A stretch of DNA of 63,200 bases, counting the filler, from Dugesia japonica (lineage: Eukaryota), in the NCBI GenBank assembly GCA_001938525.1. It is 5 parts of 5 records of this genome, joined end to end, with 100 filler letters (N's around TTAATTAATTAA, not from the genome) between each part and the next. Parts side by side here need not be neighbours in the genome. Positions count along the whole stretch, not along the records: positions 1 to 17,703 come from MQRL01579947.1; 4 more parts are not named here. One strand, written 5' to 3'. Of this stretch, positions 1 to 48,900 are shown piece after piece; the stretch's first letter is position 1, and each line of letters opens with the position of its first letter. The notes below the pieces were generated by a model. It saw nothing but the letters and a program-made list of their open reading frames with translations. It was not told the origin of the DNA and made no database searches. A program made the position numbers and the translations under genes.

Positions 1-1228
1 CTGAGGTATGGAAAAAAGAGAATCCATCTAACAAAGATAGAGGAAAACGGCAACAAAAAATTAAAATTCATAGTTGAAAATACCCTATTCAACAAAGTTG
101 CTATGACACAAGATGGTGCACAACTCACATTAGCCATAGATAAAAACAATAACAATTTGTTAAATGTATCAATAGATAGATTATAGTAAAGTTCGTTCAT
201 TAAACACACGCATATATGTATATATAAAGTATTTGTATGAGCTTTATTATATTATGACTGTGTGAATTAATATGTATATATACTTTCAGAATATGGAATC
301 TAGAAGAAGCTTCTTACAGAATAATNNNNNNNNNNNNNNNNNNNNNNNNNNNNNNNNNNNNNNNNNNNNNNNNNNNNNNNNNNNNNNNNNNNNNNNNNNN
401 NNNNNNNNNNNNNNNNNNNNNNNNNNNNNNNNNNNNNNNNNNNNNNNNNNNNNNNNNNNNNNNNNNNNNNNNNNNNNNNNNNNNNNNNNNNNNNNNNNNN
501 NNNNNNNNNNNNNNNNNNNNNNNNNNNNNNNNNNNNNNNNNNNNNNNNNNNNNNNNNNNNNNNNNNNNNNNNNNNNNNNNNNNNNNNNNNNNNNNNNNNN
601 NNNNNNNNNNNNNNNNNCAATAGTTGGGCAATTTGTACCTTTTACCTTATTCATAAAAATGCAGAGTAATAACAATCTCAGATTTGCTCATTTGCACCTT
701 TCATACACCAAATCAACACCCCAGATAGAAGCGACCCCACTAGTGAATTTCTCACACATTCACAATGTTTTATTATTGTAATTTTTGTATTTTATTGGGT
801 GAATTTTTAAATATATATTTTTCTATCAGAACTTGGTTTTTAATGAATTCGTTAAACCTAAGAAATAATAATTCTAACANTAAATTTAAAATAAATTAAA
901 AAATAAAACTTTCAAAAATTTGATAATATTTGTTCCTGTGTTGAAAATTAATTTTAAAATTTTGACAAAAATAAATAAGTAATACCTTTTTATTCACTGT
1001 TTACTAACCAACCAATAATAATGCGAGAAAACTTAGACAACAAATTATTAGTCATGAAATTAACAAAGTTAATTCATGATTAAAACAAAGACTAGTTAAT
1101 TAAAAATAAATAAAAAACAAAGAGATATTTTAATTTTTTACATTTATTACATATAACATACATTTTCAACTACAATGTTGACATTTATTTACATAGACAT
1201 GAATTTCACATATAATGTTGATTTTTAA

Positions 1229-1530
1229 CTATATTAAACAATTTTGTCCGCAAGTCGTTGTAAATGGGTTTTGAAATATTTTTTTGTTATACTCAATTAG
1301 CTTTGATATTTTTGAGAGATGTGAGACCAATATTTCTAAATAATAATATCCAAGCGGATCAAATACTAATATTTTTGCGGTTTATGGTAAACTGCTTTCC
1401 AATGTTCTTCACCGAGATTAGATGTTTGAGTATTGACGATTATGGCTTTATTTATTGGAAAGTATGGAAGCTTGTTCAATGGATATACTCCTAATGACGT
1501 TGATCCCAACAATTTTGAACCGATTTAATT
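1229..1530 (-). pseudogene. Maverick/Polinton adenain-like cysteine protease, frameshifted
   Basis: Minus-strand translation GVYPLNKLP...IIVNTQTSNLGEEHWKAVY, then after a frameshift VFDPLGY and FQNPFTTTCGQNCL: H, D, Q and C motifs in the order of the adenain/Ulp1-fold protease. Confidence 0.8.
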
Positions 1531-1599
1531 AATTTGAATAGAACTAATAAAAAAATAAAAATATATAAATTAAAAATTACTTAATATTTTACAATTTGA

Positions 1600-1909
1600 C
1601 TGCACTTGATTTTGTTCTGTACTCTTCTGCTTGCTTTAATTTGGATTTCATTTTTAAATTCTTCATAAATAATTACGGTGCAGTCAAAGCTTTTGCAAAC
1701 TTTTTATCCAATCTAAAATTTCCCTGTTGAGGTAATTGACTCTGCTTTATATCGAAATTCGGAGCCAATACAAATATAAAGAATGGATACTTGCTTTTGA
1801 ATTCTTCAAGTGTTATTCTGAAATTTATATTCTTATCCAAATATCCCATATTTTTTACTATGGATTGCATATATGTTGTACTAAAATTATCGTTTTCAAA
1901 ACATTGATT
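1600..1909 (-). pseudogene. Maverick/adintovirus major capsid protein, C-terminal fragment
   Basis: ORF 1673-1927 ITLEEFKSKYPFFIFVLAPNFD...QGNFRLDKKFAKAL, continuing after a frameshift as IIYEEFKNEIQIKASRRV; resembles the Polinton MCP C-terminus (FxFDLxPD...GNLRLExxFxxAL...ExxNxIxI). Confidence 0.75.
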
Positions 1910-1915
1910 NNNNNN

Positions 1916-2051
1916 GACTGTATGCAAGTTGTCCCGATAACCACTTTTTGGTCTTTGTTTTTGTTTTTTGTGCTGCTTTTATCAACTTTTCTACGCTGCA
2001 AAGACCTACAGGATTTTTTGGGTCCATCCATATCGTCTTTAGTTTGCCCAT
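1916..2051 (-). pseudogene. Maverick retroviral-like integrase, N-terminal fragment
   Basis: MGKLKTIWMDPKNPVGLCSVEKLIKAAQKTKTKTKKWLSGQLAYS matches the Polinton integrase N-terminus (LxxIYYDPxxP...VxKL...WLxxQxxY); ends at a 6-N gap. Confidence 0.7.
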
Positions 2052-2119
2052 TACAACAATTTGATGAAAACTTTAAGTCAAAATTAGGTAATCATTGTAC
2101 ACCGCCTATTGTTTATTTT

Positions 2120-2376
2120 GAATGAGTTAATCCAAGTGCTGCTAATGCCATTGGTAGTAATGCTACTATAAAACCACCCTTTTGACCCAACAAAACCTTT
2201 CTCACTAATCTCCTATTTTTTGTATTGACAAGTGATATTAATTACTTTTTATGTCTTTTCAATTTTCGTTTTCTAGCTTGGCTAATATTTACATTACGGT
2301 CAACAACATTTACGATACTTTCTAATAAACGTTCAATTAAAAACGATGGGAATGATTGCAGAATTGTCATTCTCAT
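2120..2376 (-). pseudogene. Small basic Maverick/adintovirus protein with QKGGF motif and hydrophobic tail
   Basis: RMTILQSFPSFLIERLLESIVNVVDRNVNISQARKRKLKRHKKVI / frameshift / NRRLVRKVLLGQKGGFIVALLPMALAALGL; lies between ATPase and integrase, like the conserved basic ORF of this group. Confidence 0.6.
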
Positions 2377-2679
2377 TGGTTTAGAGATTTAGGCAATGCA
2401 ATAAAAAACGGAACACTTTGTTCTAATTTCATTTTATTTAAATATTACATATCATTTGATTGTTTATAATGATGTCCATTTTCCGTTTGCATTTCCATAC
2501 ATTTTTGATAGTTTTTTGAACATACTCCACTGCTTTTTCTTTCCAATATGCTTCTATCTTTTACCGATGCCATTTTTTCTGTTAGACCTTTTAGAAGTAA
2601 AATCAGGTAATTGATTTTACCTGATCAATTACAACCTTTTTAAATTTTGTCGTTTTATAAATAAAATATTTACATCGTT

Positions 2680-3100
2680 TGTTTATACACAGTNACACCG
2701 TTAGGATTGAAAGTATTTGTCCGTACCCTCAATTCATCGGAACATTGTTGTGTAAAGTCTAGAAAAAGATATCCATGAGGGTTTAACGTAGCATCCTGGA
2801 ATGATTCAATAATAAATTGTTTATTATTAGGATACGCTTGTCTTACTAGTAAATCGACAACCGTTTGATCTCTCGGAGTTTTGAAAGTAACCCAGAATTG
2901 AACATTTAAATTACGGGTTCTGTGACTTCCTTCTCGATGAAAGAAATTTTGAGTAATGAATATAACAGTTACCTTGGAATGTCTTCATATTAAGTCCTTA
3001 AAGTCTTTTTCTTTGTTTGCCTCCTGATACAGATAATATACTACGATAACATAACCCGGTTTCTATCTCTTGCTCCAATTTTTATCAAATCTATTTATAA
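2680..3100 (-). pseudogene. Maverick packaging ATPase (A32/FtsK-HerA family), C-terminal half
   Basis: HSKVTVIFITQNFFHREGSHRTRNLNVQFWVTFKTPRDQTVVDLLVRQAYP...ESFQDATLNPHGYLFLDFTQQCSDELRVRTN matches the TQN..R..LN..F.xPRD...RQ...DAT..P.GYL.D...R.RTN pattern. Confidence 0.85.
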
Positions 3101-3414
3101 ATTTCATTTTTATATTACAAAATTTCGATTTCGTTAATCTGTGCTCTTCATCGGCACCTCTATTCCAGTAGATGTTGTCAACTTTTGATTTAAATCATTT
3201 TGATTTCAATAATTTACATACAAATAAAGTTTTNNNNNNNNNNNNNNNNNNNNNNNNNNNNNNNNNNNNNNNNNNNNNNNNNNNNNNNNNNNNNNNNNNN
3301 NNNNNNNNNNNNNNNNNNNNNNNNNNNNNNNNNNNNNNNNNNNNNNNNNNNNNNNNNNNNNNNNNNNNNNNNNNNTATATATATACCCTAACAACTATTA
3401 CAAAAACATTAATA

Positions 3415-3810
3415 ATGTTAGTCAATATTAATTACAAAGTTAAAGTGTCGCAAGACATAACAAGCAAAATAAAATTCCCCATTGGTAAACCTTCAACATT
3501 TGTTGACAAAAGCGGGAAATATACAATCATATTCTTTAAATAAGGAAATTGTTGAATCATGGGATGCAAACAACCGATTGAAATAGATAAATTACAGTAT
3601 GACATTAAAGACATTCGGTTGCAATCGTNNNNNNNNNNNNNNNNNNNNNNNNNNNNNATTAATTTATTTAAATTGGCAAAGATAACAAAATGCTGGTTTG
3701 AAGCGGAATCGTTTCCAGCAAAACGTCTTACAAAATATGATCCTAAAAATAAATTTATAACCAACACTATTTGTTTTTTCAAACAAATTAAAACACCATG
3801 CTTTAATTAG
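3415..3810 (+). pseudogene. TATA-binding-protein (TBP)-like pseudogene beside the Maverick module
   Basis: One frame with two in-frame stops: MLVNINYK...KYTIIFFK*GNC*IMGCK...IRLQS[N gap]INLFKLAKITKCWFEAESFPAKRL; recalls TBP repeat motifs IFxSGKxxxxG and IxLxxL...YEPExFPxL. Confidence 0.55.
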
Positions 3811-4070
3811 GAATTATTCTTTAATAAATTTGAAATTTAAATTTAATCATTTCATGTAAAATAATTCAAAAATTTAAAGAAAATATTTATTTGTCATCAA
3901 AATCTTATTTAAGTTCTTCCGAAATTTTTAAACAAAATTGTCATTTCTAAAAATATACAATAAATTGTGTATAAAAATATTTAAATTAATCTTTAAACTA
4001 TTCATTTCAATTGTGTTCAATTAGCGAGAATAAACAGTTAAAAATCGAAAATTAATATTTTGTCTATTTA

Positions 4071-4870
4071 CTATTTCAACAATGTCTTTTTATGGTGGAA
4101 ACTATAGTTATTCATAATTAGAATATCATAAAGATTATTTTGGAAATGTAACAATACTTTATCATGTAAAATAATAATAAAGCTTTCACCATTGAATGAT
4201 CCTTCTATGATTTCAAACGCCATTACGTTTTTGTTTAATAGCAACCATACAACCCAAATCCTTTCCTCNNNNNNNNNNNNNNNNNNNNNNNNNNNNNNNN
4301 NNNNNNNNNNNNNNNNNNNNNNNNNNNNNNNNNNNNNNNNNNNNNNCTTTTTCATCCAGGAAAACCAAATTATCGTCATTCAAAAATTCAAGTTCATGGG
4401 CATATATTTGTCTTGCATCAATATTCCTAAGACGGTTTTTAATAACTAACCAATCTTTTTCTTGTATATTTCATACTCCTTAGTAATCTTGAAATCGAAC
4501 TTTGATTTTTTATTATTCCAAAAATTCTTAATTCTTCTGATAATTCGCTTTATGTAAATGAAGAATCTTTCAGTAAAATTTGAGATAAACGCACTTTGGA
4601 ATATGAATGATTCTTTAGTTTGGGTCCAGTCTTTCTTCGTAAAATATTCTAGTTAGTTTTTCCACAACAAATTTTCTTAATAATATTGCAGACTGTAGGT
4701 CGTGATAATGATTCATCATTGGCTATTTCTTTCACGAAATTACCATAATTTAAAAAATTTCTAATACTTTTTATTATTTCTAGTGCTATTATAACGCGTT
4801 TTTCCTTTTTGTTATTGACAGAACGATTAAATTTTCACATGAATATTCTTCATAATTATGATCGGCTCAT
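4071..4870 (-). mobile_element. Degenerate IS630/Tc1-like transposase
   Basis: HTH-like IANDESLSRPTVCNIIKK near 4700; DDE-region AFEIIEGSFNGESF...LIMNNYSFHH (IMDNxxFH-like); stops and frameshifts. Confidence 0.7.
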
Positions 4871-7800
4871 ATGGGAAAAAATAATAATTATGATAACAGA
4901 AATAATTTCAATACAATTATGATTAATTTTAACTATAATTATCATTAATTTTAAATTTGATTATCAAAAACTTTAAATATAATATTGCATAGCCCTGTAA
5001 CATGTGTTGACCCTATCTTATTAAAAATAAGGTTATTTTTGAAACTTATCTGTTTAAGAAATATTTTCATTTTAACTTTTCGGTTTTTTTTGTTTAATTG
5101 CTTATTGTATCTTAGCATATTGTTAGCATTATTTATTGGAATCGAGGGTTAAATTATGTTTTCGAACAAATTTAAATTAACTTTAAAATAATTTTGGTTT
5201 TATGAATTCTCATTTTGTCAAGCTAAATATAATAAAGTGATAAATGAACCTAAATAATCACTTTTCAAAGTGCATTCGCTACCCGAATTTTTATATCTGA
5301 TAATTGATTTGCTCTAAAATTTTATATGAATCAGTTTCATTCATTCAGAAAATAATATGAAATAAATTAATTATTTCGCAAACCTTTAGTTTAATTTTCA
5401 AAATCTCTTAAATCATCAGATATTTGTACTTGTTCTATAAACTACTCGTTATCAGAATAATTTAGTTGAGTTTTATAATTTTAACTCTAACCGATGTAAA
5501 GAATTTTCACATAATATTAAATTTGGGTCCTTTCAGTTTAGACAAATATCGTCCAATTAAATATTAAATAAGAATCCATGCGCAAAGTAAGAGGATTATC
5601 CCTTCCTAATGATAAAAAAAGTCGTCAAATATAGTCATTGTTTAGATCTTGACGATTCGGACACACTTTACTTTCAAAAACCAGATGGAATCTGGAAAAA
5701 TCACCTTGATTATTATAACTTAAAAAGGTTACCAAACCGCCATAATGGATGGTAGACATTGCAAGGGATCAATTATACTTCATAGACAAGAATTTAAACA
5801 TCGTCAATTGTCTATACCAACAAATAGACTAGAGACCATCTAGCCGTATCCTATAACTTCGATGCGAAACCTATGTCAAAGAAACGTCCGCGTATAATTC
5901 CAAACCCGAAAACGTTGTCTCACGTACCACCATCTAAGCCGAAGAAAAAGAAACCCTCTCAGTTTGGTCCGAGTACCAGTAAGAAATGAAAATTCGAATG
6001 GTGAGAGCCATAGCGTTTCTAGCTATTACCGCTCTACTCTATCAGCGATTCAAGCACAATGAGAACTCTAGCGTTTCTAGCTACTCCCGTTCATCATTGT
6101 TGCCATAACAATCCATAATTATTCCAATTCACAATTCAATCAAAAATGGGAACTATGGCTGTATTTAGCTACTACCGTTCTCCATTACCTTGTTAATAAA
6201 CATTATTATTATATATTTTTGTGGAGTTTATTTCAACAATTATTCACATTTTTTTGTGATCAAATTTCGGTGAAGTTTATTTTTTTGTATATAACGGATT
6301 TTATTTTAAATACTTATGTATATAAATGACTTAAATATTTTATTTTTTTGGGACAAAAACATATTTTTGGGGGATGATATGTTAGGGTTGTAAGCTAAGC
6401 TTACATTAATTTTATTTAGTTTATTAATTTATTTATAAAATTTTCTAGTTTTTTAAAATCACTAACTTAATTTTTTCATAAAGGTCATTGTTTAAATTCT
6501 TTAATTTTTATATTTTGTTTAGAAGTCTTTAAAGTTTTAAAGTTTTGATAAAAAAGAATTTTTATTAATTATTAAATATAGTAACTTAAATTTTAACGTT
6601 ATTTTAAATTATTTATTTAGATCAGCAGAAATTTCAAATATCTAATTTAGGTAAATAAAAATTATCAATTCAGGTAAATGTTTATTTAATTAAGAATTCG
6701 ATTAATTAAATGTAAACAGAAAATTCTGTATATATACTGATTGCAAAATCAGTTTTACTCAGACAAAAAATTTTAAGCTAAATATTAGCGGTAACCAATT
6801 TTTTAAAACAGCAGTAAAGCTAAAAAATTTATTTGTTGCTATAAGTAGCAGTTACATTAAAAACGTCATTTTTGATAATTTTTGAACAAATATAAAACCT
6901 TTTGGATTAATATTTGTTTTTCTTTTAAATCATTTAAATTTGAGATAATATTACATTGGTTCAAACACTNNNNNNNNNNNNNNNNNNNNNNNAATAAAAT
7001 CAGCCGCCTAAAATTACACATATTGAGTTATCTACGTGTGGTGAGGAAACTTAGACCCACCATTCATTACTTATCAGGACGGTATTGTAATACCGGTTTT
7101 CATTCTTCTGTATATATAAATAGAGCGGTTTTCGCAAAACCCCAAAAGTCATTATACGTTTTATTATTTGTAATTTTTATAGTTATTTGATTAATAAATC
7201 CTTAAGTAAAAGAAAGTGTTATTTTAATTTATTATCATATTTTCATATTCAATTTATTTATAACCTTTCACGAATATATTTTCTAATTAAAATTTGGAGT
7301 CAGATTAAATAATTAATAAATTGTTATTTCTCCCCACAAGATCTAACAGATGTAACAACTTGCCCTCAGCGTGAAAAGCAAAGTAAAAATACATGCTCTT
7401 AAATAACTATGAAATTAATTTAAAGATTAACCCTTTCATTACAACAAAAGTATGTATAAACACTCTTTATAAGTGAATAGCATATATTTTCGATTGATGT
7501 TTTTTCTTTTTGAGAACAAGAAATGTAAATATTTGTTGTAAATATGTTTATTATGAAAAATGGTTTTTGGTCAACATATTTATGTTTTAACGATAATACC
7601 AATAGAAATTTGTATTCAGAGAAATATTACCTTGAAAATACTTCTCAACGAAGGAATAAAAAGAAAAATTCATAATTTTTAAAATAAAAAATTCTTTTGT
7701 TTTGCTTTAAAATTCTAATTTTCGTCAGGAGCCTTCAGATAAATTTTCTAAATCAAAAGATCAAATTTCAATAATTATAAAATGATTACAGAAACAAAAC

Positions 7801-8038: not shown

Positions 8039-11000
8039 ATGGAAAATAAATTTTCTAATAATCGCTCTTTGGAGAATGTAGTTCCAATGATTTCTAGTCA
8101 AAAAAGTTTAAAAGGAATTATAGCTGGTAATAATTAGACTAGTATATTTTCCAATAAGTTTATTACAGGAGGTATAACTGGGGGTTTAGAGATTTGCATC
8201 ACTTTCCCCACTGAATATGTTAAAACACAATTACAACTTGATCAGAGGGTTGGCTTAGCAAAAAGATTTAAAGGACCGATACATTGTGTTAAAATAACGG
8301 TCAAAGAACATGGATTCTTTGGTCTATATCGAGGGTTATCTGTTCTTTTATATGGATCGATTCCAAAATCTGCTGTCAGGTTAATTATTAATATATATAT
8401 ATATATATTAAAATGTAATTTTTCTTTAGATTTGGAGCTTTTGAAGAATTTAAAAAGAGAAATTTATCATCTGATGGTACTTTGACTAATAGCAGAAAAC
8501 TTCTTTGTGGATTGGGTAAGATAAAATTCATTTCCTAAAAATTTCATGAAAATACTGTTTGTTTAATTTTATTTTTCCTATTTCAGGGTTTTAACGAGCG
8601 ATTATTATACATATTTCCTTTTTATCGCATTAATTAATAACCTATGCATTTCGCAAAATATTTTCGATCATAATTTATTACTTTATCTTTGAAATGTTTT
8701 GTCAAATACGTATCATTTTTACATTTACATTAATCCAATAAATATTTCTGATACGAATAATATGTAATAATAATATACTAAAATAATAACGAATACTCAA
8801 ATTTCTTTATCCGGTATTGTAATTTTCTATATAAATTATGTTTCCACAAGAAATTTAAAATATTTATCTATAATAATGGAAAGTTTAGTCCGTTTCCTAA
8901 AAAGGAATAATTGTAATTAGAACTTTTGACTGGTAATTATAGTCTAAATATTTTTCAAAGTTTACTAATAATATTGGTGAAGTAAATTATCTTTATAAAA
9001 TAATAGACGAGAAAGAATAGTTGTAAACTTTTATTATTTAAAATATAAAATTAATTGTTTTTTTTTNNNNNNNNNNNNNNNNNNNNNNNNTGTAGGTGCC
9101 GGCGTATCGGAAGCAATTTTTGCTGTAACTCCTATGGAAACTGTAAAAGTAAAATTTATAAATGATCAAATATCTGCAAATCCGAAATATAATGGATTTT
9201 TTCATGGAGTTAAAACTATTATAAAAGCAGAAGGTATTTGTTTTAATTTTATTTAGCTGCTTCTCATTTCTTACATCAACTTAATTATCATTATAATGCA
9301 ATTCATGTTTAATCCAATGAAAATAATGATATTTTTTTAATGTAAATTTCTGTCACACACTAATGATATCCTCTGCTTTAGAACATTCTTCACATCTGGT
9401 TAAAAAGTTACTATACAGTTAAATGAAAATAAATTTATTTACAGAAACGTATAACTATTTTTGTTATATATATACGTATTTTTCTAAACGGTGCATATAA
9501 AATTCACAACTGAAATGGAATGTAATGGATTTTCTGGATTTACTTATAGAACGAAAATTTGATCATTATGAGACAGAAATCTATCGCAAACCAACTGATA
9601 CAGGTTTATATACAGCACNTGGAAGCTTCTGTGAATCTCGTTATAAATTTAATATGATTATAGGATTAGTATATAGATAATGGGCTGACTCTTCTTCCTA
9701 TTTGAACTTTTGTAAAAATGTTCAAAATTTGATGTCTTTATAAAATAAAAAAAATCAATTCATTTAATATAAAAGCTTAGATCAAAATTATTGATATTGG
9801 ATAACAATTCGATATTTCGACCTTGTCTNNNNNNNNNNNNNNNNNNNNNNNNNNNNNNNNNNNNNNNNNNNNNNNNNNNNNNNNNNATATTAAATGAATT
9901 CTATAAAACGATCAATGGTTAAGTCCAACAATTATTCTCATAATAATTGCAATTGTAAAAAAAATCAATTATAGAAAAATTATCTTATGAAATGATTTAT
10001 AAAATTGTACTTAACATTAATAATAATCCAAATGATGAACAGGTTATTAAGGACCCAGATAAATCTAATTATTTCGATAAAATTAGTTATGTTTTAAATA
10101 TTCCTTATTTTGAAGGCTTTAAGGATTTTAAAAATGGTTTGCTAAAATTTTCAGTAAATCTCCCAAAGTTTAAAATTGTGTCTCCGTCTTTTAAAATTAT
10201 AGCTGCGTTCAGTAATAAGTCTAAGACTCATTATGGATTGGTTTCTAATCTTATTTATAAATATGAGTGTAATGGGTGTAATGCCACATACATTGGAGAG
10301 ACTTCCCGTCATCTCTGTAAAAGATGATGTATACAACCACATATTATAATTGGAAAAAAAACTTTTCTAAACACCTTATTTACAAACACATCATTGGTAT
10401 GTCTATTAGATTTAAATATTGCAAACTACTGTTAGAAGCAAAGAATGTAGAAATTGGCACTAAAAGCTAATAATGTAAATCTGCAAATATTAATAATACA
10501 ATAAAAATAATGAAACGATTTTCTCTAATATTTTCCTTATGTTGTTATTTAATAATGTTAAATCTATTTTTAATGTTATTTAAAAAAATAATTAATGCTT
10601 GAAAATATGATATACATTTTTATGATATATACGTATATAAATGTATATCATATTATCGGATAGAAGAAGTAACAAAATAATGTTTTTTCCTTAAATGAAT
10701 GCTCAATTTCCTTTGATTTTATGTTCTTGAGTTACTGGTGATATTATAATATGATGATTCTTATTTGGTATTTTAGTAATGTTGAATTAAATACAAGTCT
10801 GATGTAATACAAGGGTCTGATTTCATTGATTATTTATAATTTAAGTTTTATTAAAAGGAATCAAAGGAGTATATCAAGGAGTGACGGCTACTATAATGAA
10901 ACAAGGTACCAATCAAGCTATTAGATTTTTCGTTATTGAGTCCCTAAAGGATGGATATAGAAAATTTCGGGGTGACACTAGTCCTAACGCTCCCATTCCA

Positions 11001-11090
11001 AAATTATTGACTGGAATATTTGGTGCAATTGCCGGAGCTGCATCTGTATTTGGCAATACTCCAATCGACGTGGTAAAAACACGAATGCAG
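8039..11090 (+). CDS. SLC25A1: Mitochondrial tricarboxylate (citrate) carrier, partial; exons 8039-8126, 8169-8379, 8430-8515, 9096-9233, 10858-11090
   Basis: Spliced in frame via GT-AG introns: [30 protein letters not shown]...[25 protein letters not shown]...[24 protein letters not shown]...[21 protein letters not shown]...[17 protein letters not shown]; three PxE/DxxK carrier signatures. Final exon(s) not found before the contig end. Confidence 0.95.
9520..10400 (+). mobile_element. Penelope-like element remnant (RT C-terminus + GIY-YIG endonuclease) in intron 4 of the citrate carrier
   Basis: [26 protein letters not shown] (PLE RT thumb YRKPT) and [27 protein letters not shown] (GIY-YIG with CxxC). 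Confidence 0.85.
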
Positions 11091-11170
11091 GTTAATTTAT
11101 TATTGAGTGGAAGAATAAATGTTTTAGCTAAAGATTTTCTTATTAATGAATTAAATTTTATTTTGCACGT

Positions 11171-11240
11171 TACAGTGGATTCTGCATATAATGACCTCGA
11201 ACATAATGAATTTTTCGTTTATAATGAACTTTTTTGGTGC
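11171..11240 (+). mobile_element. Tigger/pogo-like MITE 5' terminus
   Basis: TA+CAGTGGATTCTGCATATAATGACCTCG...TATAATGAAC resembles Tigger-type MITE ends. Confidence 0.4.
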
Positions 11241-11519
11241 TATTTTATTACATTATATAGGAAATTCTATTAAGGTTGATAAAAGCGAAATTTACGGATC
11301 TTGTGAAAAAATTTACAGATGATTATCTAACACAAAACATAAACATATTAATGTATAACACAGTTCTGAATGTAAAACAATTTCTATCAGCGTATGTGTT
11401 CAAATTGATTGTCCTCTGCTTTAGAACCTTCTTCACATCTGGTCAAAAAGTTACTATATGTACAGTTAAATGAAAATAAATTTATCTACAGAAACGTATA
11501 ACTATTGTTGTTTATAAAA

Positions 11520-13270
11520 TATACTTTTCTAATTAGATGCTACTGAAAAGGCTCTCTCGCTGGCAGTGAAATTTGGCGGAATAGTAAGCAATGCTTGGTA
11601 CAATTTTTATGTGTTCTTACCTCGTTTACGATTATTACCATTCAATTATTTAAGCTGTTTATCTAGTAATAACAATTTGGATATAGTAATTTTTGGAACC
11701 GCCATAACAATTTTTATGGTTTTTTGAAGCTCATCGTAGACAGAACTTTAAAATTGTACATCCGAATCTGAATCATTATCATGTAATTCTTTTTGGGCTT
11801 GGCTTTCTTCACCATTCCTTAATAACCTTTCAAAAAATTCTTTACATATTTTGATGAATATGTAAAATATTCATTAGACTGGGAATAAGAACCAGTTTGC
11901 AAAAACAACATTAAAGATTCTATAATTTTGTTTCTTCTTTCATCAAATCGCGTCTTTAAGGCATTCTTCATTTGAGTTGCAAGATCATTTTTTGCTTCTT
12001 GTAGCTTATTTATAAAGAAATATACAAACTACTTCAGCGTTCAGTAAATTACCATCTTCTCTGCTCAACTCATTTACAGCTAACTCTATAAGTTGCAAAA
12101 ATTCCAATATGTCCTTCAAAAAATTGTATTCATCTCGATACATTTCTTTCCCCAGCTCTTCTAAAGCTTTGTTAATACATTTTTTTTATTTTAAGAAGTG
12201 GTTAACCATTGGTATAATAGAAGTCCAACGAGTCCTGTAGTGCAGAAATAACCGTAACTTTTTACCTTCCTGTTCTAAAACGTGTTTTTGTAGAATGCTC
12301 TTCCTAATACTAGATTTTTTTAAAAAAATTATTATTTTTCTTGTCTCACCAAGAACGATTCCAATATTTCTACGTCACCAGCAATTAATTTTCAGTTTCC
12401 AAATTTAAATTGGAATCTACAATATAATTGCTATTTTCAGTGGCACTACTGGCATCTTCACCATAATCTATACCATCTACTTCAGATTCATCATCATAAT
12501 TATTATTTGCCTGCCCATCATCTCTGATTGCATTATTTTTTTAAAGAACACATCAATTAGACCAAGATGAATTCCATGATTCATACATAATTGAGACGCT
12601 GCCTCAATATTCCTACCATATTTCACCATTACTGCAGTTTCATCATTAGTAGAGGCTATGATATCAGAAACTAAATTAATTCCGAATTCTTTCTTTTTTT
12701 CCGTTACGAACGTAATAGTGGCTTCTGAATCACAAAACTAAGAACATATGCTGCAGCCAATGCGTGGAGCGTAACATTCATATAGCTTCTCATTTTGATG
12801 TCACTCCATTCGTCTACAGTTATACTAAATCTGTTCCCAGATTTGAATTGAAGCAATAAAAAAGTTATCATTTCAACATTATTGTCTTTATAAAACTGCA
12901 TTATGTATTTGATAATTGTTTGTTTCACTTTTCGGCATATAACCGCGATTATATACAAAATCTTTGATGGCTTCAGAAGACGCTAATCCTTTTATGTTAA
13001 ACCCATCATTTGCAACACATTTCGCCAATATTTCATTAAGTGTTTCCCGATTGACAAATTTTACCATTTTAAATTTTTTTGAAACAAAATGGTCGATTTC
13101 ATCATATTTATTTTCTGTCAAAAAAATGTGAATTTTTAAGTGTTTAATCGTGCAGTAGTATTAGATCCTTGGCATTCGATGATAAATTGGCATGTACTGC
13201 ATATTGCTGGAGATTTTCCTTTTTTTCAAAATACTTCCACACTGGTGATTTGTTCGACAACATTTTTCAT
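11520..13270 (-). mobile_element. Degenerate hAT transposase
   Basis: BED-finger-like SPVWKYF...AICSTC; FSITVDEWSDIKMRSYMNVTLH; RTRWTS; dimerisation motif IPPNFTASERAFSVASN; many frameshifts. Confidence 0.9.
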
Positions 13271-24398: not shown

Positions 24399-24419
24399 AT
24401 TGTTTCATTTCGATTTAAC

Positions 24420-26370
24420 AAATCGTTTAGGACACCCTATTGCAAACAAAAGAGGGGTTAGACAAGGCTGTCCTCTTTCAATGTTGTTGTTTAACATCGG
24501 CATCAGTCCTATTATTAATGAGGTTTCTAAAACTGAAGGTGGCGGTGTTAAATGTGCTGCACATCCCATATCTTGTTTGGCATATGCAGACGATCTAGCA
24601 CTTGTAGCCTCTTCCAAGGCTAGCCTACAGGATATGGTTCATGTCGCTGTAAAATTTGCAGATTTGTCTCATCTTGATTTTCGGCCGAGCAAGGGCGCAT
24701 ATTTGACTTGTCCAATAAATTGTGAACTTGCTCAAATTGTCGTTAGGTGTGAAGCTATATTAAAACTGTTGAATAATGACTCTTATTGGTATCTTGGGAT
24801 CGATTTTAATCGTGAACACTTTCAAATACCAACGGACATGTTTGCTAAATCTGCAAAGGATCTGGAGAAAATTTCTAACTCCATCCACGCATATCGAACC
24901 TGTATTCATTCTAGGTTCACTTTTGCGTTCAGGAACTTTAATATTCCGTTGGGAAAGTTTGATTGCAGTGAGCATTATGAAAATGGTATTCTTCTTCGAC
25001 CACGAGGTATCGATAAGAGCATTCGCACTAGCATTAGGCAAATCTTGCCTGTTCCAACCACTGCTACATGTGACTATTTGTATAGTTCTCGTAAACTTGG
25101 CGGGGTTGGGTTAACTTCTACGAGGGACGAATATTTCGTACAATCTTTGATTCGAGCTTTTAAAATGCTTACTTGTTTTGACAAGACTGTACGGGATGTC
25201 ACCAGCAATGATCTTGTTCATGCTGTGACTAAGCATCTTAAGCGTTTTGATTTGTGTTCTTTAGACGAATCTCTTGATTGTCTCTCCATAGGTACCACCA
25301 ATTTGAATCTGATGTGTTGGTGGTCTAACGTCCATGACGCAATTGCTTCTCTGTACATATTGTATTACATACAAGTTAAGTTCAAACGGAACGAACATGG
25401 CATTTTTATGCAGATAATCGATTGCTTCTCTGAAGGAAATTACTTAATTTCTTTCAAGGACCGGAGAGGTCTGACTAAGTTGCTTCACTATCTTTTAATC
25501 TTGGCTCACACAAGAAAGTGGAACAATCAGTTTAAAGCAGGAAAGACTATCGACTTCAATCGGTGCCTCTCCTCTGTCAACGAAGCCACTGTTTGATGGA
25601 TCGATCAATATAGAATGCTGGAGTTTCATCCATAAGGCAAGAACAAGCACTCTTCCTATAGGAAGCAATCATGGTATGCCTTTTAAATCTTGCAGGAAAT
25701 GTTAGCTCATCTGGAAACTCAAGCACATGTTCTGTGTCATTATGGTCCTTCTTCTTCATTACGAATTGGAAGACATAATGATGTGCTTGAATTGCTTGCC
25801 AGTTTTATCAGATCAAACACAAGCTACACAGTTGTTGTAGNTCAGACTTGTGAATTTGTCAACAGAACTGATCGTGTCGACCTTCAGCTAATAAACAGAG
25901 ATACCAAGCGTATATTTCTATTGGATGTGAAGATTTCATATGACACATCTGATAACATCACACTAGCCAGAGATAATAATATTCTTAAATACACACCACT
26001 CAAGGAAGACATCTTGAAAAACTTGCATGGTTGAGAAGTCTTCCTTGAGACAATCTCAGTGGGGTGCCTGGGATCTTAGTGTGTAGAAAACGAACCAGTT
26101 TTAAAACAGGTCGGTTTAAAGGCTAGTGTGATTAGGAAATTCGCGTTGATTTCGATCAAGAAATGCATTGCGTGGTCAAGCAAAAATTTGCCCTTCCATA
26201 ACGGACAAGCTGGTGCAAAAGACCATTCTGATGAACAGTGCGGCATTGTTTATGACAGTGAGTCCGATATTGAAGAGTTGGAATGATGTCCAGATTTTTG
26301 GTGTCTTTTGAGTTTTTTTTATTTATTTATTTACTTTTTTTTCATCTCTATTTTTCTTTTTGGTTTTTTT
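24420..26370 (+). mobile_element. 5'-truncated RLE-type (R2/R4/NeSL group) non-LTR retrotransposon
   Basis: RT motifs KRGVRQGCPLSMLLFNI, LAYADDL, YWYLGI, RKLGGVGL; ETQAHVLCH, RHNDVL, RVDLQL...LLDVK...KY restriction-like endonuclease; T-rich 3' region. Confidence 0.92.
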
Positions 26371-26779: not shown

Positions 26780-28960
26780 GATAATCCTACCTGATAATTT
26801 TATCGATAAATTATTTAAGATATTTGATGAAATAAAACATGTTAAAATCTAGTTTGTAATTCATGTGGAATTTATTAGGGATGGCGAGATTAAGACTTGT
26901 AGATTAACGAAAAGTGCTGTCTCTTTGTCTGATAAATCTTTCGAAGAACGAATCTAACGATTAAATGAGATTATAGTAAGAAATGAATTCGATAGTAATT
27001 AGATTCTTAGTCGGAGTTTAGAAATGAACTTTAAAGTAACTAAAGTAAGTGATATAAGTAGGTTGTCAAGATGTAGTTATATCCCAATATCTGAAAATCT
27101 TGTGAAGAAAACCGCTGTTTTTAATATTTGAAACAAAAACAGTATGTGCTTCATTTAAAGCATTCTTGATATACACAAACAACTTGTAGTTTAAAAGAAT
27201 AATTATTGAGATTCAACTATAAGAATTATATCAAAGAAAACTCAAGTAATTCCTCCAATTTTGGATGGCGTTTCTGATGAAATGTACTTGAAAGCTATTG
27301 AGACGTGGGAATTCTGTGCTTGTAAGAATTTTTTAGAATATATGATGGTATATTTGAAACTTGATGTTTTTCTTTTAGCGTTTTTTTTCAAAGATTTCTG
27401 GCTAAATCATTAGAACATAACAGGTTAGAACCACTTAGTTTCTTTAAAATTCTGGGAATGAGTTGGGTTTTGGCCTTGATGACTAACTAACTCATTGAGC
27501 TTTTGACTGAAAATTAAATGTACAATTTTTTTGAAGGTGGTATGAGCGGAGTTGCTTTTGTAAATAAACATCATGTAACTACATATGATAATACTGAACT
27601 TTTGTATATAGATAATAATAATCTACATAGTCTGGCTTTAAGCCAAAAAATTATTTATCAGATGAGTTTAAGGATAGTAGACTTATTAAGACTAAGGGAA
27701 AATTTTCTTTTGACCTAGGAACTAGTTTAGAAGTTTTAGAGAAAACTCAAGTAAGAGTTACTTTTGTAAATAAACATCATGTAACCACATATGATAGTAC
27801 TGCGCTTTTTATATAAATATTAATAATCTACATGGTTTGCCTTTACGCCAAAAAATTCCTTTTAAAATCTTTGAATGAGTTTATTGAAATTTGAAAAGAA
27901 TTGGGGTTGATTGCAGAATTTTAGATGTAGATTCATTGTCTTATTGTTATAGTGATGAAGTTGATCTGTTAATTCCTTATGTATTACACGACTACTTAAA
28001 AGACTTACCGATTGCTTTTGAACGACAAATTATACCAGGTACAAAAATTAAAAAAACTATTATTAATACATCATCCTAAGAAAAACTATTTAATAAATTG
28101 TAGGCTACTTCAATTGTATTTAAAAATAGAAGCTGAAGTAACTAAAGTTCATAGAGCTTCAAAATTTAGCAAAGACTAAATTTCTAATGATTATATAGAT
28201 GAAAACCCTACATTAAGGTCTGAATGGGAAAATGTGTTTGATAAAAATTAATATAAATGGCTCAATAATGGTCCTTACGGAAAAATGGTTGAAAATTTTA
28301 AGAAAATAATTACAAAGACATATTGTGACTTATACTTCAAAACTAAGCTTTGAGAAAACTTTAAAAATTGACAATGACTTGATTGCTGTCTAGCTTAATA
28401 TGAAGATTATTTGTTTGGATTATCCGAGTTATATAGAACAATTTGTATTATATTTGTATAAGCTCAGGGTGTCTCAACTACAGTATATTGAATTAGACAA
28501 ATATCGTAAGGAGGAAATTTGTTCTATAAGTATTGTTGGAAGAACACAGACAGCATTTCATTAAAAGTTAAAAATATTAAGTTAAAGAAATTGTTAGGTT
28601 TAATCGTACGAGATACGTTTTTTGATAAATCTAATTGTAGTATTAATCATCAACTTTTCAATTATCACTTGAATTAATTTATAGGCAAATTTAAAGATGA
28701 GTTCAAAGTTATAGGATATAAGAAATGGGTTTTTCTGATACAAAAATGTTACAGTATTCCTAGTTTAAAAACGTCTATGAAGGCTAAGGGTGTAACATTA
28801 AAAAGTACCAACATAAACTCTCAGTGGTATCTTAATTGGTACAACAATAATAAAATAGGGACTCATAACCATCAATTCTATAGCTTTAATGATCCTAAAG
28901 AAGGTTTGACTAATACTGATGACAAAAGAGTATGAGTAGAAAAGAAAAAAAGTCTATCAT
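26780..28960 (+). pseudogene. Protein-primed family B DNA polymerase (Maverick/adintovirus type), decayed
   Basis: WEFCACKNFLEYMMVYLKLDVFLLA; IELLTE..MYNFFEGG; LLYIDNNNLHSLALSQK (DxNNLY); EVDL..P..LHD..KDLP; VTKVHRA; LNNGPYGKMVEN; KAKGV; TDDKRV; many stops. Confidence 0.9.
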
Positions 28961-29207
28961 ATAGACATTAAAGTATTTCAAACCATAATAAACAACTTTA
29001 TCCGCTCAATGTAAAGGTAATACTTTTTTATTTGTTAATCGAAATTTTTAAATTTTATTATTTAGTAATTCAAGGTCCTTTGAGTTTGCATTTCAAAAAT
29101 GTAAAAGGTTTTTTCAACTAAATCTTCATGAATAAAAACGTTGGCCTGAAAATATTTTTATATTTCTGGGGAGATGAGTTGGTACGCCACTTTTTATATA
29201 TAATATT

Positions 29208-31874: not shown

Positions 31875-33665
31875 TTCTAACTACTCTCTCTTCTAATTTT
31901 AAGCTTCAATCTTCTTCAGCCATTCCAATCTTCTGGGTTTGAGTTTTCCTGCAAGGTCTATAGGTATCTGATGTGAGCTTATGAATTTAATTATTTTATA
32001 TGGATCTTCAAATCTTAAACCTTCTTTCTTCAGCTTGTGTAGATCAACCGTTACCCATACTTCTTCCTCCTCATTAAATTGTTTATATGTTTGTCTATCA
32101 AATTCATATTTGTTTAACTTTTTAGCCGGTTCATGTAAGTTTCCATCTGCTATTTCCTTCATTTTTTTATGATCTGAACTTTCTTCTTGCAGTAACTCAT
32201 CTAAAACTATCCTTCTTCCAAAGATGATTTTGAAAGGAGATAATCCAAATGATTTCTGTTGAGTCGCATTCATAGAAAATTGTATTCTTGGTAGTAATTT
32301 GTGCCAGCTTGCTTCCGAGCATCCATATTTTATCGTTGTTACCATCATATCGCTCAAATTTCTAATGCTTCTTTATGTTAAGCCATTTGATTGATGTTGA
32401 TATGGCGATGCGAATTCTTGTTTTATCTCAAATATATCTGCAAGTGATTGCATTAATTTTCCTTCAAATATCTTTCCTCTTTCAGTAAAAAATGACTTCG
32501 GTTTCCCAAAACAAATATATCCATTGCTCTTTTATCGCATCCACCACTATCATTTTATCCTGTTTATTCAATTCTACAAAAGAAACTAACTTACTAAATC
32601 TATCAACCATGAAGAGAACATATTTTTTCTTTGTTTGTGCTTTAGAGAAATGAGCAATACCCATGACAACCTGTTCTAAAGATCGAAATTCTGTTCTTGG
32701 GGTCAGACACTCTTTCGTTCTGTCAATATATGTCTTTCTCACATTGCATATCATACATTTTTTTAATTGGTGCTCTACAATCCGTTTCATATTTGGCCAA
32801 AAATAACTTACATTTAAATATTCTGTCCGTTTTTGTCCTCTCACGTGAGATAATTCTTCGTAAATAAAATCAATAAGTTCGGGTATCGATTGCCCTGCAA
32901 GTATTATTTTCTTTTTGTTATTTTCATTGATAATTAACATTTCATTATTCATCTCAAATTTATCAATTTTTGGAAAATATTTACTTTTCGTCACCATAGC
33001 ATTCAGTTTACTATCACCTTTTCCTTTTTCTATATATCCAATAATTTCTCTTGTAAAATCATTTCTTTGTATTTCTTTGATACGAGATTTATCAAAATTT
33101 GTTTTATCTAATACATTGATTCTTTTAATGCAAGCTTGTTCTCCCTTGGCATCTTGATGTGACGTCTGGCAATGTGAACACCAGCTTTCGCCTATTCTTA
33201 AAAGTCTATTGGCATTTCCATATGCTGCTCCTTTTCTGAATTCTAGATCGAAATTAAATTCTGCTAAATTTGTTATCCATGTTTAGAACTGCGAACTAAT
33301 AGGTTTACTCGTCTTCGTCATAAATGTCAGAGCTTTATGATCTGTTCTTGCTATAAATTTTTTTCCGTATAAATAATGCTTGAAATACACCATAAACTCA
33401 TGCAATGCCAACAACTCCTTGCGAGTTACGCAATATCTTTTTTCACGATTATTTCATGTGCAAGAACCATAAGCTTTTACTCGTTCTAATCTATCGGTTG
33501 TAACTTCGCGTAAAACTCCTCCAATTGCCTCAAAACTAGCATTTGTATCTAATATCATTTCACTTTTATCATTTGGAAAAGCCCAGATAGCAACACTAAC
33601 GTAATTTTTAATATTTGAAAACTATCCTCACATTCTTTTGTTCATTCGATATTTTTTTCATGGCA
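31875..33665 (-). mobile_element. Ty3/gypsy 3' fragment (RNase H, integrase, PPT), related to the element at 45637-52761
   Basis: LDTNASFEAIGGVL, YCVTRKELLA, RTDHKAL, YFWPNM..CMIC, VDRFSK, SPYQHQSNG, GLSPFKIIFGR, FEDPYKI...RRLEWLK; stop followed by purine tract AGAAGAGAGAG. Confidence 0.9.
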
Positions 33666-43462: not shown

Positions 43463-44182
43463 TTATTTCAATAATTTCTTTTTAAATGAACAAAGTGGTC
43501 TTATCACATACTTATTTCTTGTAGGTAAGTAGCTCATTATGGTTTGTAATTCGTCTGCACCAGGAAATTCATCTAATTTGAATCCATTCTTCAACAAAAT
43601 CTTACAATTAAAGATTCCTACTTTAGTTGGAGATTGAACTATTTCTACGTGTAATTTTAAAATATCTTCATTTGGTACTGTTGGTTTGAGAACAAAATAA
43701 AACCGATTGATAAGGTGATCACCCATAAAAATTAATTCATCAATTTCTCTTTCATTAGTTACACAATGGATATTATCCAAATTTGAACCGTAAGCATAGA
43801 AACTATGAAATGTATTTTTAATTTTGATATTTATCATAAATAGTTTCTTTTCATAAAATGGTGAATATTGACCCAATAAAAACGAATATCCTCTGATTTC
43901 TGAATTGATGGAATGAGTTTGCCCCAAACGAAAGTCATCAATGTANNNNNNNNNNNNNNNNNNNNNNNNNNNNNNNNNNNNNNNNNNNNNNNNNNNNAAC
44001 GATTTGTATGAAAATTTACAAAGAGGACAGGCATCTTTCTTGTCCAAAGTATCAATTACCAAACAGTCTAAATGTAATACATGTTTACAAGCATCTAAAT
44101 TTATTATTGCATGATTCGAATTTTTCTTTTCACACAGATGGCACATTTTATTGTCTTCAAACTTTTCATTATAAGAAATCAT
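43463..44182 (-). CDS. Intronless RING-H2 finger protein with an unrecognised C-terminal domain
   Basis: 239-aa ORF (spans an N run) with CHLC...ACKHVLHLDC...ACPLC, a C3H2C3 RING. Confidence 0.7.
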   Translation of the reverse strand: MISYNEKFEDNKMCHLCEKKNSNHAIINLDACKHVLHLDCLVIDTLDKKDACPLCKFSYKSXXXXXXXXXXXXXXXXXXYIDDFRLGQTHSINSEIRGYSFLLGQYSPFYEKKLFMINIKIKNTFHSFYAYGSNLDNIHCVTNEREIDELIFMGDHLINRFYFVLKPTVPNEDILKLHVEIVQSPTKVGIFNCKILLKNGFKLDEFPGADELQTIMSYLPTRNKYVIRPLCSFKKKLLK

Positions 44183-44413
44183 TTTAGATTAATGATTTTA
44201 TTTTTTAAAATTTTTTTATATGGTTTTTATTATGTAACTAATTAAGTTTTTCAGGAAAAATAATTAAATGTAATTTTCTAAAAGAATACTAAAATGCAAA
44301 ATAATTATTTGTTTCCTTAAAGTACTGTTGGGTTGAAACACCCAAAAAAANNNNNNNNNNNNNNNNNNNNNNNNNNNNNNNNNNNNNNNNNNNNNNNNNN
44401 NNNNNNNNNNNNN

Positions 44414-45960: not shown

Positions 45961-48900
45961 GCTTTATTTAACAATACAGCAGGATGATTAGTCCATGATT
46001 TAAGTCCGAGTCAGTATAGGCGAGTCCGTAACCTTAACACTTTTCTTTTAGCATCTAAATTTTTCAAGCAGCCAAGTTTTAATCAAACCCAGCTCAAACA
46101 TCAAGGAAGAAGAGTACTAACAATTGTGTTGTATCTGGTCTCGTTAATCATATGATCCAAAAAAATGCGATTACTAGTCTTGATGACTTTTTCTATAAGA
46201 GCCTGGCGATGTGTTTAATTTCTCTGTTGTTGAGTTCAATTGCTTTAAGAGCTCTTTGATTTGCTGGATATCGCGATCCCAGTAACGATAGCATCGAGTG
46301 TAACCTCTTTGTGGTACTTGGTTCCAAGATCTTTTCGAACTTGCTTATATTTTATTTTGTTGTCAATTCTAGCTTTCTTGACGTCCAAAATGTGAATCTT
46401 GTTGTTCCTATCACTAGTAATAAGCAGATCTGTCTCAGCTTGGTTTCAAGTCCTTGAAGTAGGCAGTCATACTGTACGTCAAAATTCATTTTTCTGAATA
46501 TTGAGGCCGTCTTTTACAGAATTCTGTTGTGTTTTTTGTCTGCAATCTTGGTGTAATCTTCAATGTTCTTAGATATGATTTTCTCAAGGTTGCATTTTTT
46601 CTTTTGACTAAAGAGTACACCTAAATAATTGTAGAGGTTCTCCTCGTCAATGATATGAAGTTTTTCTCCATAGATTCGGATTTCATTAGAGATAAATTGC
46701 CGGTTAGTAGTGAAGTATCCACATTTGCTGGGTCTGAATTTAAGTTGACAAATTTCGGAGAGAACAACTATATGATTTATCATGGAGGCACTCTTCCGCT
46801 GGTTATTTGTCATAAGCATGAGATCATCAGCATAGGCAAAGATAGCTGTATTAAATACAGAGTTTATAAACAGGAAATTTTGTTGCAGTATCCTTGATCA
46901 CAAAATTAATAGTAAGGCTGAATAGAGTCAGTGACATAGAACATCCTTGCTTTACACCTTTACGAATTGGAATATCACCAGTGTTGATATCGAGACATCT
47001 GTAGCTAGTATACGCATCAGTGTATAGATCTCTGAAAAGATGAATAGTATCATTGTGAAGACTCATTCTCTTCAGAGTATTCCATAGTAATTCATGCGGG
47101 GGACTTCTAAAAGCATCAGCAAGATCAAGCCAAGTTAGATAAAGATTTGGTTTTTCTTTTTCTGCTTTTTCCTTTATTATTTGGATAGTAGCGTTGTGTT
47201 GTGAGCAGCCATCGAAGACATTTACAGCATTCTGAGTAATTAAGAGAAAGCAGCTGTTCTTTATCCATTGGAGGAGACGGTAGTTCATTATAATGGCAAA
47301 GATTCTGTAGGAAGTGTCTAGAATAGCAATTGGCCTCCACGATTAAACAAGGTGCGAATCCTCTTCCTTTCCTGGTTTGAGTATAAGAGTAGTGTGAAAT
47401 CTTTTCCATTCGTTCAGGATATCATTTTGTTTAAGAACTTTGTTATTGAGTTCTTTAAGGAAACATTGACTGTTGTCTAGTTTGACCCAGTCTGAAAAGC
47501 TGATCTTGTCAAGGCCTGGCGAAAATTTGTTAGCACAGCTAAAAGCATATTCTATTTCTTGAGTAGAGATTTCGTTGTTAGTGTGGGAATCTTCTGAAGC
47601 AGGCAGTATATGATTTTTGAGCAGATTAAAGTCGAGATCCTTTGGTTTAATCTTGGTAAGATCTTTGACAATGTCTTCTTTAGTAGGACACGAATCAGGT
47701 GAGGAGGATCCAATGATTTCATTGAAATCCGATGATGGATTCTTCAGATATCTTGTTTGTAGTTTGTATTTTGATTCCACAAGGTTGTTTCTCATAAAGT
47801 GATAAGATTTCTTAGGATTTCTGTCTTTGATTTTGTTAGGTGAAACTTTGGCTAGTTCCTGTTGAATTAAAAGAAGAGATTCAGTAGTTGTGATTGAACC
47901 GTTAGCTAGCTTTTAACTGATTTGAGATATGTTGTCTCGGTTGTCTTCTTTGAGAAGTTTTTTGTTTATCGATTTAATGTGCTCGTATACTATCGTTTTG
48001 ATGTTTTTTCGGTATTCTTTAACATTTGGAACAGACAAGCAGTTGTTGTTTAGGATACATTTTGCATAATGCAGAATCAATATCTCACAGTCATTATCAT
48101 TGATCTGGAGTGGATGGCTGAACGAGGTTTCTGAGTTGATAGAAATGACATGATTGCTTAGTCATAGTTGTGATGCATCTGATTCAATCACTAAAACATT
48201 ATCACTTGATTGTAAAGGAGCATCATTATTTTTGTTTTTTTGCAAGAATCCATATGTTGGATTAAGTTTTCGAAGTTTGCACTATGACCACAATTGCAAA
48301 GGATGAGATTATCGGTATCCTTAATTTCTTTAATGAGATGTAGGTTGATATGTTCCTTGATATTGATGGTGTTTAGCGGACTGTTGAAGAGTAAACCACA
48401 GATTTTCCCATTTTTTGATGAGTATTTGCATTTAGCACTACCAGAAAAGCAGTCAACATCTAGCAGGTGAGGGTAATTTTTTCCTGAGCCGAGAAGAACC
48501 TTCCTTTTCTTGTTTCTAACTTGAATTTTAGAAGGGAGAGAGCTATCGAAGGTATCATCATAGAGTTTTAGATCTGATTAGTAGAAATTCCGTTTGGTTC
48601 CAAGAGTGGCAGGACAGATGTCACACTGGACAATGAACTCTTGATTAAGTTTTATTTTGTGGATCATTGAGCAGTGATCGTACAGATATTTGCTGTTGAT
48701 ATTTTTCTTTCCTACACTGCATTGTGCGGGATGAGTGCATTTAGTTCCTTTTCAATTTTGAGTCGATAGGCAATGAATTTGTTGGGGTAAGTATTGTCTA
48801 GAGTTTTGGTATCTTTGGATGTAGGCTTTCTAGCATTTTTAGGAGTACGTTTTTCTTCTGCAAGGTAGTCGTTCAATTGTAGTAGTTTTATTTACTTCGT

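Follow-up and report, generated by a model that had tools for sequence, protein, structure and literature searches.

A clade of Polinton-type (Maverick/adintovirus) elements carries its own compact TBP-like factor of about 150 amino acids, the mini-TBP, and an oriented ATAAAC[AG] motif stands a short distance 5' of most packaging and virion genes in the same elements. From this comparative evidence, it is likely that the mini-TBP is an early viral factor recognising a late promoter private to the element's virion genes. A member of the family lies in a 63,200-nucleotide stretch of Dugesia japonica DNA (the window). This copy is a fossil, and its value lies in the mini-TBP family to which it belongs.

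The pseudogene occupies positions 3415..3744 of the window on the plus strand. As given in a preliminary description of this DNA, a single intronless frame is present at 3415-3810 (+), both peptides quoted there were recovered from it, and it is interrupted by in-frame stops at codon 43 (3541..3543, +) and codon 47 (3553..3555, +). TBP homology accounts for the frame as far as about 3744; the remainder continues through unrelated sequence to a stop at 3808-3810. A 29-N run lies within the gene (3629..3657), and a TATA-like stretch lies 30-39 nt 5' of its start (3376..3385, +), where relatives have a canonical TATA box and where it may have served the same function. Identity of the window copy to five intact relatives, 149-153 aa long, was 65-71%. 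When a profile built from 108 relatives was run against the six frames of the window, its only significant match was to this frame (E=2.6e-34, covering profile positions 1-112 of 148). In the Pfam TBP search proposed earlier, the window copy itself fell under the cut-off of 22.9 bits (E=0.055, 13.8 bits), whereas 5/5 intact relatives scored above it (PF00352, 47-58 bits, two stretches each). The second IFxSGK-type strand that the preliminary description expected of a TBP is absent, as the kept part ends before it: the last ~40 residues, comprising this strand and the C-terminal helix, are missing, and the second TFIIB-contact glutamate is not retained. On the TBP tree the window copy nests within the mini-TBP family. 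Thus, with two stops, a 29-N run and about 40 C-terminal residues gone, the window copy is a dead, truncated pseudogene.

The truncation is real in the genome, since a contig with 3 differences from the window spans 3673-3944 across the truncation junction. Other contigs either stop at 3745 or start at 3746, a pattern suggestive of a join to another repeat. Over codon 43, nearly all of the depth in run X2 comes from 47 contigs that differ from the window within this codon, indicating that this stop is not common to most copies. The 1000-4300 stretch is covered by about 7,000 contigs in each DNA run, the majority of them less than 95% alike, indicating a large, diverged repeat family. RNA reads over the TBP-like gene were few, 4 and 11 in two runs, all less than 90% alike; over the wider stretch one run yielded 567 reads, of which 3 were at least 99% alike.

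The Polinton-type genes beside the TBP lie on the minus strand. The neighbouring A32-like packaging ATPase (2676..3233, -) was confirmed, with 63% identity (E=1.7e-74) to the ATPase of locus L020 and a relative that matches Pox_A32, and it is likewise decayed, with three stops in 186 codons. Its distance from the TBP had been put at about 300 bp; homology in fact reaches 3233, 181 nt away, and 142 of these 181 nt are N. This gap (3234..3375) is the expected site of the ATPase start, as the ATPases of relatives align from residue 19-31 at base 3233 (tblastn). On the ATPase tree the window ATPase falls inside the TBP-carrying clade (support 99/97). Beyond it lie a small, decayed basic gene with a QKGGF motif (2167..2432, -; 42% identity, E=2.4e-12 to an L005 ORF), which we presume from gene order to be pX-like; an N-terminal fragment of an rve integrase (1902..2063, -; E=2.3e-7 to the L050 integrase, a relative matching rve); a C-terminal fragment (1614..1906, -; 57% identity, E=1.5e-25 to an L050 ORF) that has no Pfam match and that we take, from gene order, to be the putative major capsid protein (MCP); and a decayed adenain-like cysteine protease (1232..1521, -; E ~1e-15 to relatives, of which L046 matches Peptidase_C5). 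Several kb must have been deleted or collapsed where the integrase start abuts the capsid end, at a run of six N (1910-1915). No convincing inverted repeats were found in window positions 600-7000, and the window copy is a fragment of an element. ATAAACA sites persist 35 nt 5' of the QKGGF-type gene (2461..2467, -), within the family mode of -40 to -31, about 65 nt 5' of the integrase fragment (2110..2116, -), and in the last ATPase codons, which encode the conserved YKQ (2680..2686, -). Across the whole window the motif was not enriched (56 sites vs 46.6 expected).

A search with the window copy as query returned 64 representatives at E<=0.001, and of the 1056 candidates from a profile search 319 proteins, mostly of ~150 aa, passed E<=1e-10. 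From a metagenome scan, 80 of 82 loci were kept, and 76 of these belong to the mini-TBP family. The TBP frame is open and full-length in 60 loci, while in L050, L051, L061 and L079 the TBP match is not within one open frame. Structure prediction, which the preliminary description had asked for, was performed on the intact relative P0002; the AF2 model (pLDDT 95.6) matched TBP, with TBP chains occupying the top 44 ranks in Foldseek (E=4.8e-9) and a Z of 13.1 to TBP in VIA (rmsd 2.8 A over 148 residues) against 6.6 for the best non-TBP structure. These results show a two-repeat saddle TBP fold for the model of this intact relative. Among 30 informative pairs, limited to 70-98.5% protein identity with unsaturated dS, the median dN/dS was 0.17; 29/30 pairs were below 0.5, and one very close pair gave 1.15. 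Judged from these substitution rates, the mini-TBP family is under purifying selection. Phylogeny against other TBPs placed 70 of 74 rows, including the window copy, in one group (SH-aLRT 100); a long branch separates it from the L092 protein and the three near-canonical TBPs on the tree. The TBP tree contains the same two deep subgroups as the ATPase tree.

Linkage of the TBP to Polinton genes held up across the metagenome loci. A core Polinton gene was found in 36/76 family loci and some element gene in 60/76; among loci of at least 3 kb, these counts were 25/32 and 30/32. Pfam backs the names pPolB, rve, Pox_A32, Peptidase_C5 and PLA2 in the family's loci: relatives hold a protein-primed PolB (L064, DNA_pol_B_2, E=2e-21), an rve integrase (L013, E=1e-12), a Pox_A32 ATPase and a Peptidase_C5 (adenain-like) protease. 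The names MCP, penton, core, pX-like, exoDEDD and ssb? are assumed from gene order. ORFs with the size and location expected of capsid genes have homologues from locus to locus, the TBP-less L085 among them, and no Pfam match. In the 25 loci with both genes, the ATPase was downstream and co-oriented with the TBP in 22, divergent in 2 (L006 and L061) and upstream and co-oriented in 1; 18 of the 22 co-oriented cases were at most 1 kb apart. The divergent layout seen in the window thus recurs in L006 and L061, but as a minority arrangement that is incidental to the linkage. The ATPase tree, of 33 rows, places 26 TBP-linked rows, together with the window, on one side of a branch with 96/94 support, at a node where the tree tool flags long branches meeting. 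Collectively, the TBP fold of the intact relative, the metagenome linkage and the single ATPase clade bear out the proposal of a compact TBP-like factor belonging to a Maverick lineage itself. Scans of IMG/VR with TBP, ATPase, MCP and integrase alignments returned no family member; one of them gave four TBP matches in giant-virus-like contigs.

The family protein has the general build of a TBP and an altered first repeat and DNA face. Two near-canonical viral TBPs have a longer first repeat; that of the family protein has no stirrup and an 11-residue gap at helix H2, and the P0002 model is predicted to have no long helix at the H2 position. Three of the four intercalating Phe of canonical TBP are conserved among the 108 relatives (F41 in 108, F100 in 107, F116 in 108); that of the first-repeat stirrup is absent, and the apparent loss of one of four could weaken DNA binding. 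Among the columns predicted to face DNA, N6 (105), R47 (107), M49 (108), S71 (106), T73 (95) and N114 (108) are fixed or nearly so, and at the N6, R47, M49, S71 and N114 columns near-canonical TBPs have hydrophobic residues, Thr or Asn. Residues are assigned here to bases or partners as in known TBPs, in which the 3' half of the box is read by the N-lobe. The stirrup glutamates are retained (E96 in 104 and E98 in 108 of the 108 relatives). In the available text of PMC7221094, the two C-lobe stirrup glutamates are described as contacting TFIIB. No TFIIB-like gene was found beside a family TBP when the loci were searched by tblastn with the TFIIB-like protein of L092, which matched only L092, and no zinc-ribbon pattern was found in the ORFs of family loci.

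Motifs were counted in the 100 nt 5' of each gene, with expectations from shuffles and with upstream regions de-replicated. The counts leave out upstream regions at least 80% alike, genes whose start could not be placed or had less than 100 nt before it, loci L001-L004 and L081-L084 (near-canonical or giant-virus TBPs) and a weak ATPase match in L073. ATAAAC[AG] was present 5' of virion-module genes in 84/102 regions against ~5.5 expected, with 0 on the reverse strand, the motif having been found on the same loci that supply most of the counts. Sites were mostly near -35, 48/97 of them lying at -40 to -31. By gene, it stood 5' of the ATPase in 19/20 regions, pX-like in 15/15, MCP in 9/9, integrase in 7/12, penton in 8/12, core in 5/6, protease in 3/5, PLA2 in 7/9 and exoDEDD in 11/14, each with less than 1 expected and none on the reverse strand; at pPolB starts it was found in 1/4. 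An unbiased hexamer count ranked ATAAAC first (72/79 regions vs 7.7 expected), and 58/135 motif sites lay 25-60 nt before an ORF vs 3.2 expected.

The copy of the motif in the ATPase end was examined as a possible product of the protein sequence. YK[QH] terminates 112 of the 120 best ATPase relatives, and in 15/15 YKQ ends one codon triplet is used, though synonymous codons are common in these genes. Two ATPases reading HK preserve the C form of the motif, and one further end is cut by the contig end. The identical codons and the C form kept in the HK ATPases indicate constraint at the DNA level, and a protein-level reading of YKQ was rejected on these grounds. A poly(A)-signal reading was also rejected: over 91 sites, a C or T precedes ATAAAC in 95% and an A in 2%.

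The TBP genes themselves are preceded by a different arrangement. Here the ATAAAC[AG] motif was at chance (2/52 vs 2.0), while a canonical TATA was present in 29/52 upstream regions vs 13.3 by chance. A TCA-type initiator was found in 41/52 TBP upstreams vs 17/102 virion-module regions, and the TATA-to-initiator spacing peaked at 31-32 nt. By these upstream signals, the TBP gene has a host-type TATA+initiator promoter, with 23/52 regions having no canonical TATA.

The association of gene and motif was examined in 13 control Polinton-type loci fished by pPolB or ATPase, without use of TBP. Two control loci, fished by ATPase, hold a family TBP and had the motif in 9/10 regions. Ten loci without a detected TBP, which are partial contigs, had it in 2/26 regions, and L092, with a different TBP, in 0/4. 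The controls include L086 and L087, which are more distant element types; three loci came from two pPolB scans of IMG/VR, and no TBP was detected in them. A Fisher test gives p=3e-12, treating non-independent genes as independent, and since gene and motif co-occur within a single clade, they represent one evolutionary event.

We infer from these patterns that the motif is a core promoter, that the mini-TBP rather than a host factor is its reader, that the TBP is early and the virion genes late, and that host TFIIB is used. Under this model, host machinery would transcribe the TBP gene early from its normal TATA+initiator promoter, and the mini-TBP product would bind the (C/T)ATAAAC(A/G) box as a core promoter. 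Through its retained stirrup glutamates it would then recruit host TFIIB and Pol II, and the packaging and virion genes would be switched on late. The preliminary description had suggested that the factor might drive or hijack transcription; the promoter evidence would favour its driving the element's own late genes. We lean slightly towards a still more specific view, that a Polinton-type virus clade has a minimal orthogonal switch in which a re-specified 150-aa TBP reads (C/T)ATAAAC(A/G), escapes host regulators of the N-lobe, plugs into host TFIIB and gives an early-to-late programme.

The Forkhead consensus is RYAAAYA, and ATAAACA matches it. The motif might therefore be read by a host factor, either a Forkhead protein or host TBP/TRF acting on a weak TATA variant, with the viral TBP doing something else; gene and motif may then be two independent traits of one clade. 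Other Forkhead forms are unenriched (GTAAAC[AG] in 3/102 regions, ATAAATA in 6/102), however, and the motif is strictly oriented with a core-promoter-like placement. For host TBP, TATAAAC is one base off the canonical box, and we take it to be the C(-25) variant of the literature. That variant is bound by cellular TBP in crystals (1qn3) and, going by the 1qn3 title and by PMC4402545 and PMC8643651, whose available text cites Patikoglou 1999, fits it only with Hoogsteen pairing. CATAAAC, however, is two changes from the canonical box and occurs in 31/102 regions, and the DNA face of the mini-TBP is altered and invariant; on this evidence a host reader is unlikely. The retained TFIIB-contact glutamates (for whose role see PMC7221094, in part), the lost first-repeat surfaces and the apparent loss of one intercalating Phe would also suit a decoy or repressor that binds TFIIB or host TATA boxes and so shuts off or redirects host transcription. 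This would leave the element-specific motif, and its absence before the TBP gene, unexplained, and new polar residues that do not vary point to specific recognition, not to a lost function; we regard such a role as distinctly improbable.

Binding of element DNA for a non-transcriptional job at termini, in replication or in packaging has a precedent of sorts in the divergent Giardia TBP, reported in the available text of PMC12209930 to bind single-stranded DNA, and the TBP is often near the ATPase, as in the closely spaced co-oriented pairs described above. But the motif tracks gene starts and the TFIIB-contact glutamates are conserved, so that we give this reading little weight. The window frame might instead be a retrocopy of a host TBP, or unrelated DNA joined to a Maverick across the N gap by scaffolding; in favour of this, the divergent layout is rare and no contig countable under the 31-letter rule bridges 3234-3375. 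Three runs each have one contig joining 3229 to 3500, with a short side of 29 letters; one contig in each of three runs also joins 1076 to 3859, omitting the element fragment, a weak join with a short side of 20 letters. Against such an artefact, the frame is 65-71% identical to a Polinton family that is set apart from near-canonical TBPs by a long branch (SH-aLRT 100), the adjoining ATPase falls in the TBP-carrying clade, the divergent layout recurs within single contigs in L006 and L061, and thousands of contigs cover both TBP and ATPase. We consider it scarcely credible.

The mini-TBP was compared with known TBP systems. It shares with cellular and archaeal TBP (PF00352; PDB 1tbp, 1cdw, 1ais) the two-lobed saddle (Z 11-13, ~20% identity), and it retains three Phe and the EPExFP stirrup. 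It differs in length (~150 aa against ~180 aa), in a first repeat without stirrup and helix H2, and in invariant polar substitutions on the DNA face. Lacking the fourth Phe, a full first repeat and H2 in alignment and model, the family protein does not appear to be a canonical cellular TBP.

The TBPs of beta- and gamma-herpesviruses (BcRF1, ORF24, UL87) resemble it in the proposed logic, in which a viral TBP-fold factor and a one-base TATA variant before structural genes work with host Pol II; this function has been demonstrated there (PMC4893493, PMC12529657, in the parts available). The shared feature is the distribution of the variant box, 84/102 virion-module regions vs 2/52 before the TBP, where 'late' and 'early' denote gene type and not timing. 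The herpesvirus protein is large and multi-domain and uses a TATT box, whereas the mini-TBP is a stand-alone protein of ~150 aa paired with ATAAAC; the base change falls at box position 4 in TATT and at position 7 in the Polinton motif. The mini-TBP also keeps the TFIIB-contact glutamates, has no known viral pre-initiation complex and sits in an element of ~15 kb. Structural similarity of BcRF1 to the mini-TBP was weak (E=7e-3, BFVD). By analogy, the mini-TBP may work like the herpesvirus system without belonging to it.

Large DNA viruses have TBP-like proteins that are alike in being virus-encoded, two-lobed and without the N-lobe signature, and the best BFVD matches were of this kind; in the portion of PMC7221094 available, loss of that signature is said to let viral TBPs evade host regulators. 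These viruses mostly have their own TFIIB, and their TFIIB-contact glutamates are ~40% conserved, against 104/108 and 108/108 in the mini-TBP (same source, in part). The word 'Polinton' is absent from the available main text of PMC7221094.

The elements share pPolB, rve integrase, A32 ATPase, adenain protease and a PLA2 accessory gene with the adintoviruses, Mavericks and Polintons of Starrett et al. 2021 (PMC8502044), whose available text describes no TBP-carrying clade, altered DNA face or promoter motif. In the accessible parts of that paper and its preprint, TBP in Polinton-type elements appears only in figure-legend labels, the labelled gene being a possible member of the mini-TBP family; 'TBP' is absent from the text of the supplement, the search having covered text and not figures. 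A word search of PMC11161782 and PMC10748475 gave no mention of TBP, TATA or promoter. A Dugesia genome preprint (10.64898/2025.12.11.693146) reports Maverick expansion, and 'TBP' is absent from its available text. No description of a TBP-carrying Polinton clade or of the ATAAAC motif was found in the searched literature, most subscription papers, figures and bioRxiv supplements being outside its scope.

No description of the timing of Polinton virion-gene expression was found in the searched papers, and a 2021 abstract states that Maverick particles had not been observed (PMC8097293, abstract). If the proposed reading is correct, a dedicated factor with a dedicated promoter would be evidence for a regulated Polinton viral cycle, and would mean that a far smaller genome has converged on late transcription of the herpesvirus kind. 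The mini-TBP would also be a very compact TBP and one half of a natural altered-specificity TBP/box pair, informative on TATA recognition. A 7-nt motif and one small protein are assayable without a virus.

Several other genes were observed in the related elements. A conserved gene of 110-150 aa (L013:1788-2135 and homologues in many loci, working name 'ssb?') often flanks the TBP; it found no family in Pfam or the Atlas, mostly lacks the motif (ATAAAC[AG] in 3/20) and is a candidate early partner. In L092, a Polinton-type element with ATPase, integrase, putative MCP and protease, a different TBP of 173 aa (4726-5840; Pfam E=2e-18) has directly behind it a TFIIB-like gene that matches the TFIIB repeat (E=7e-7) and a zinc ribbon (E=3e-6). 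As L092 lies outside the family on both trees and is without the ATAAAC motif, its TBP/TFIIB pair may have been captured independently. Accessory genes encode a ubiquitin-conjugating enzyme (L021:225-719), KilA-N (L064:7145-8002) and a RING finger (L056:13315-13893), and the TBP-less L085 has a PC4-like gene (11376-11885; E=0.003, below cut-off). The Polinton-type contigs L088-L097 sit in bacterial metagenome-assembled genomes and are probably binning contaminants.

Elsewhere in the window, 3746 to ~4020 is another multi-copy repeat, of unassigned kind, and a decayed IS630/Tc1-like transposase (4071-4849, -; DDE_3 E=3.5e-4, below cut-off) lies just 3' of the TBP truncation. A decayed pPolB remnant related to the family polymerases (26841-28983, +) lies 23 kb away from the TBP, beyond a host gene, and is probably a separate copy. 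Remnants of non-LTR/Gypsy-like retroelements occur at 24400-25596 (RVT_1 match) and, as judged by eye, at 31899-33282, 46514-47912 and 50387-52645. The window further contains mitochondrial carrier gene exons at 8138-11273 (+), a RING-domain ORF at 43463-44188 (-) and an adenylate kinase exon at 61218-61580 (+).
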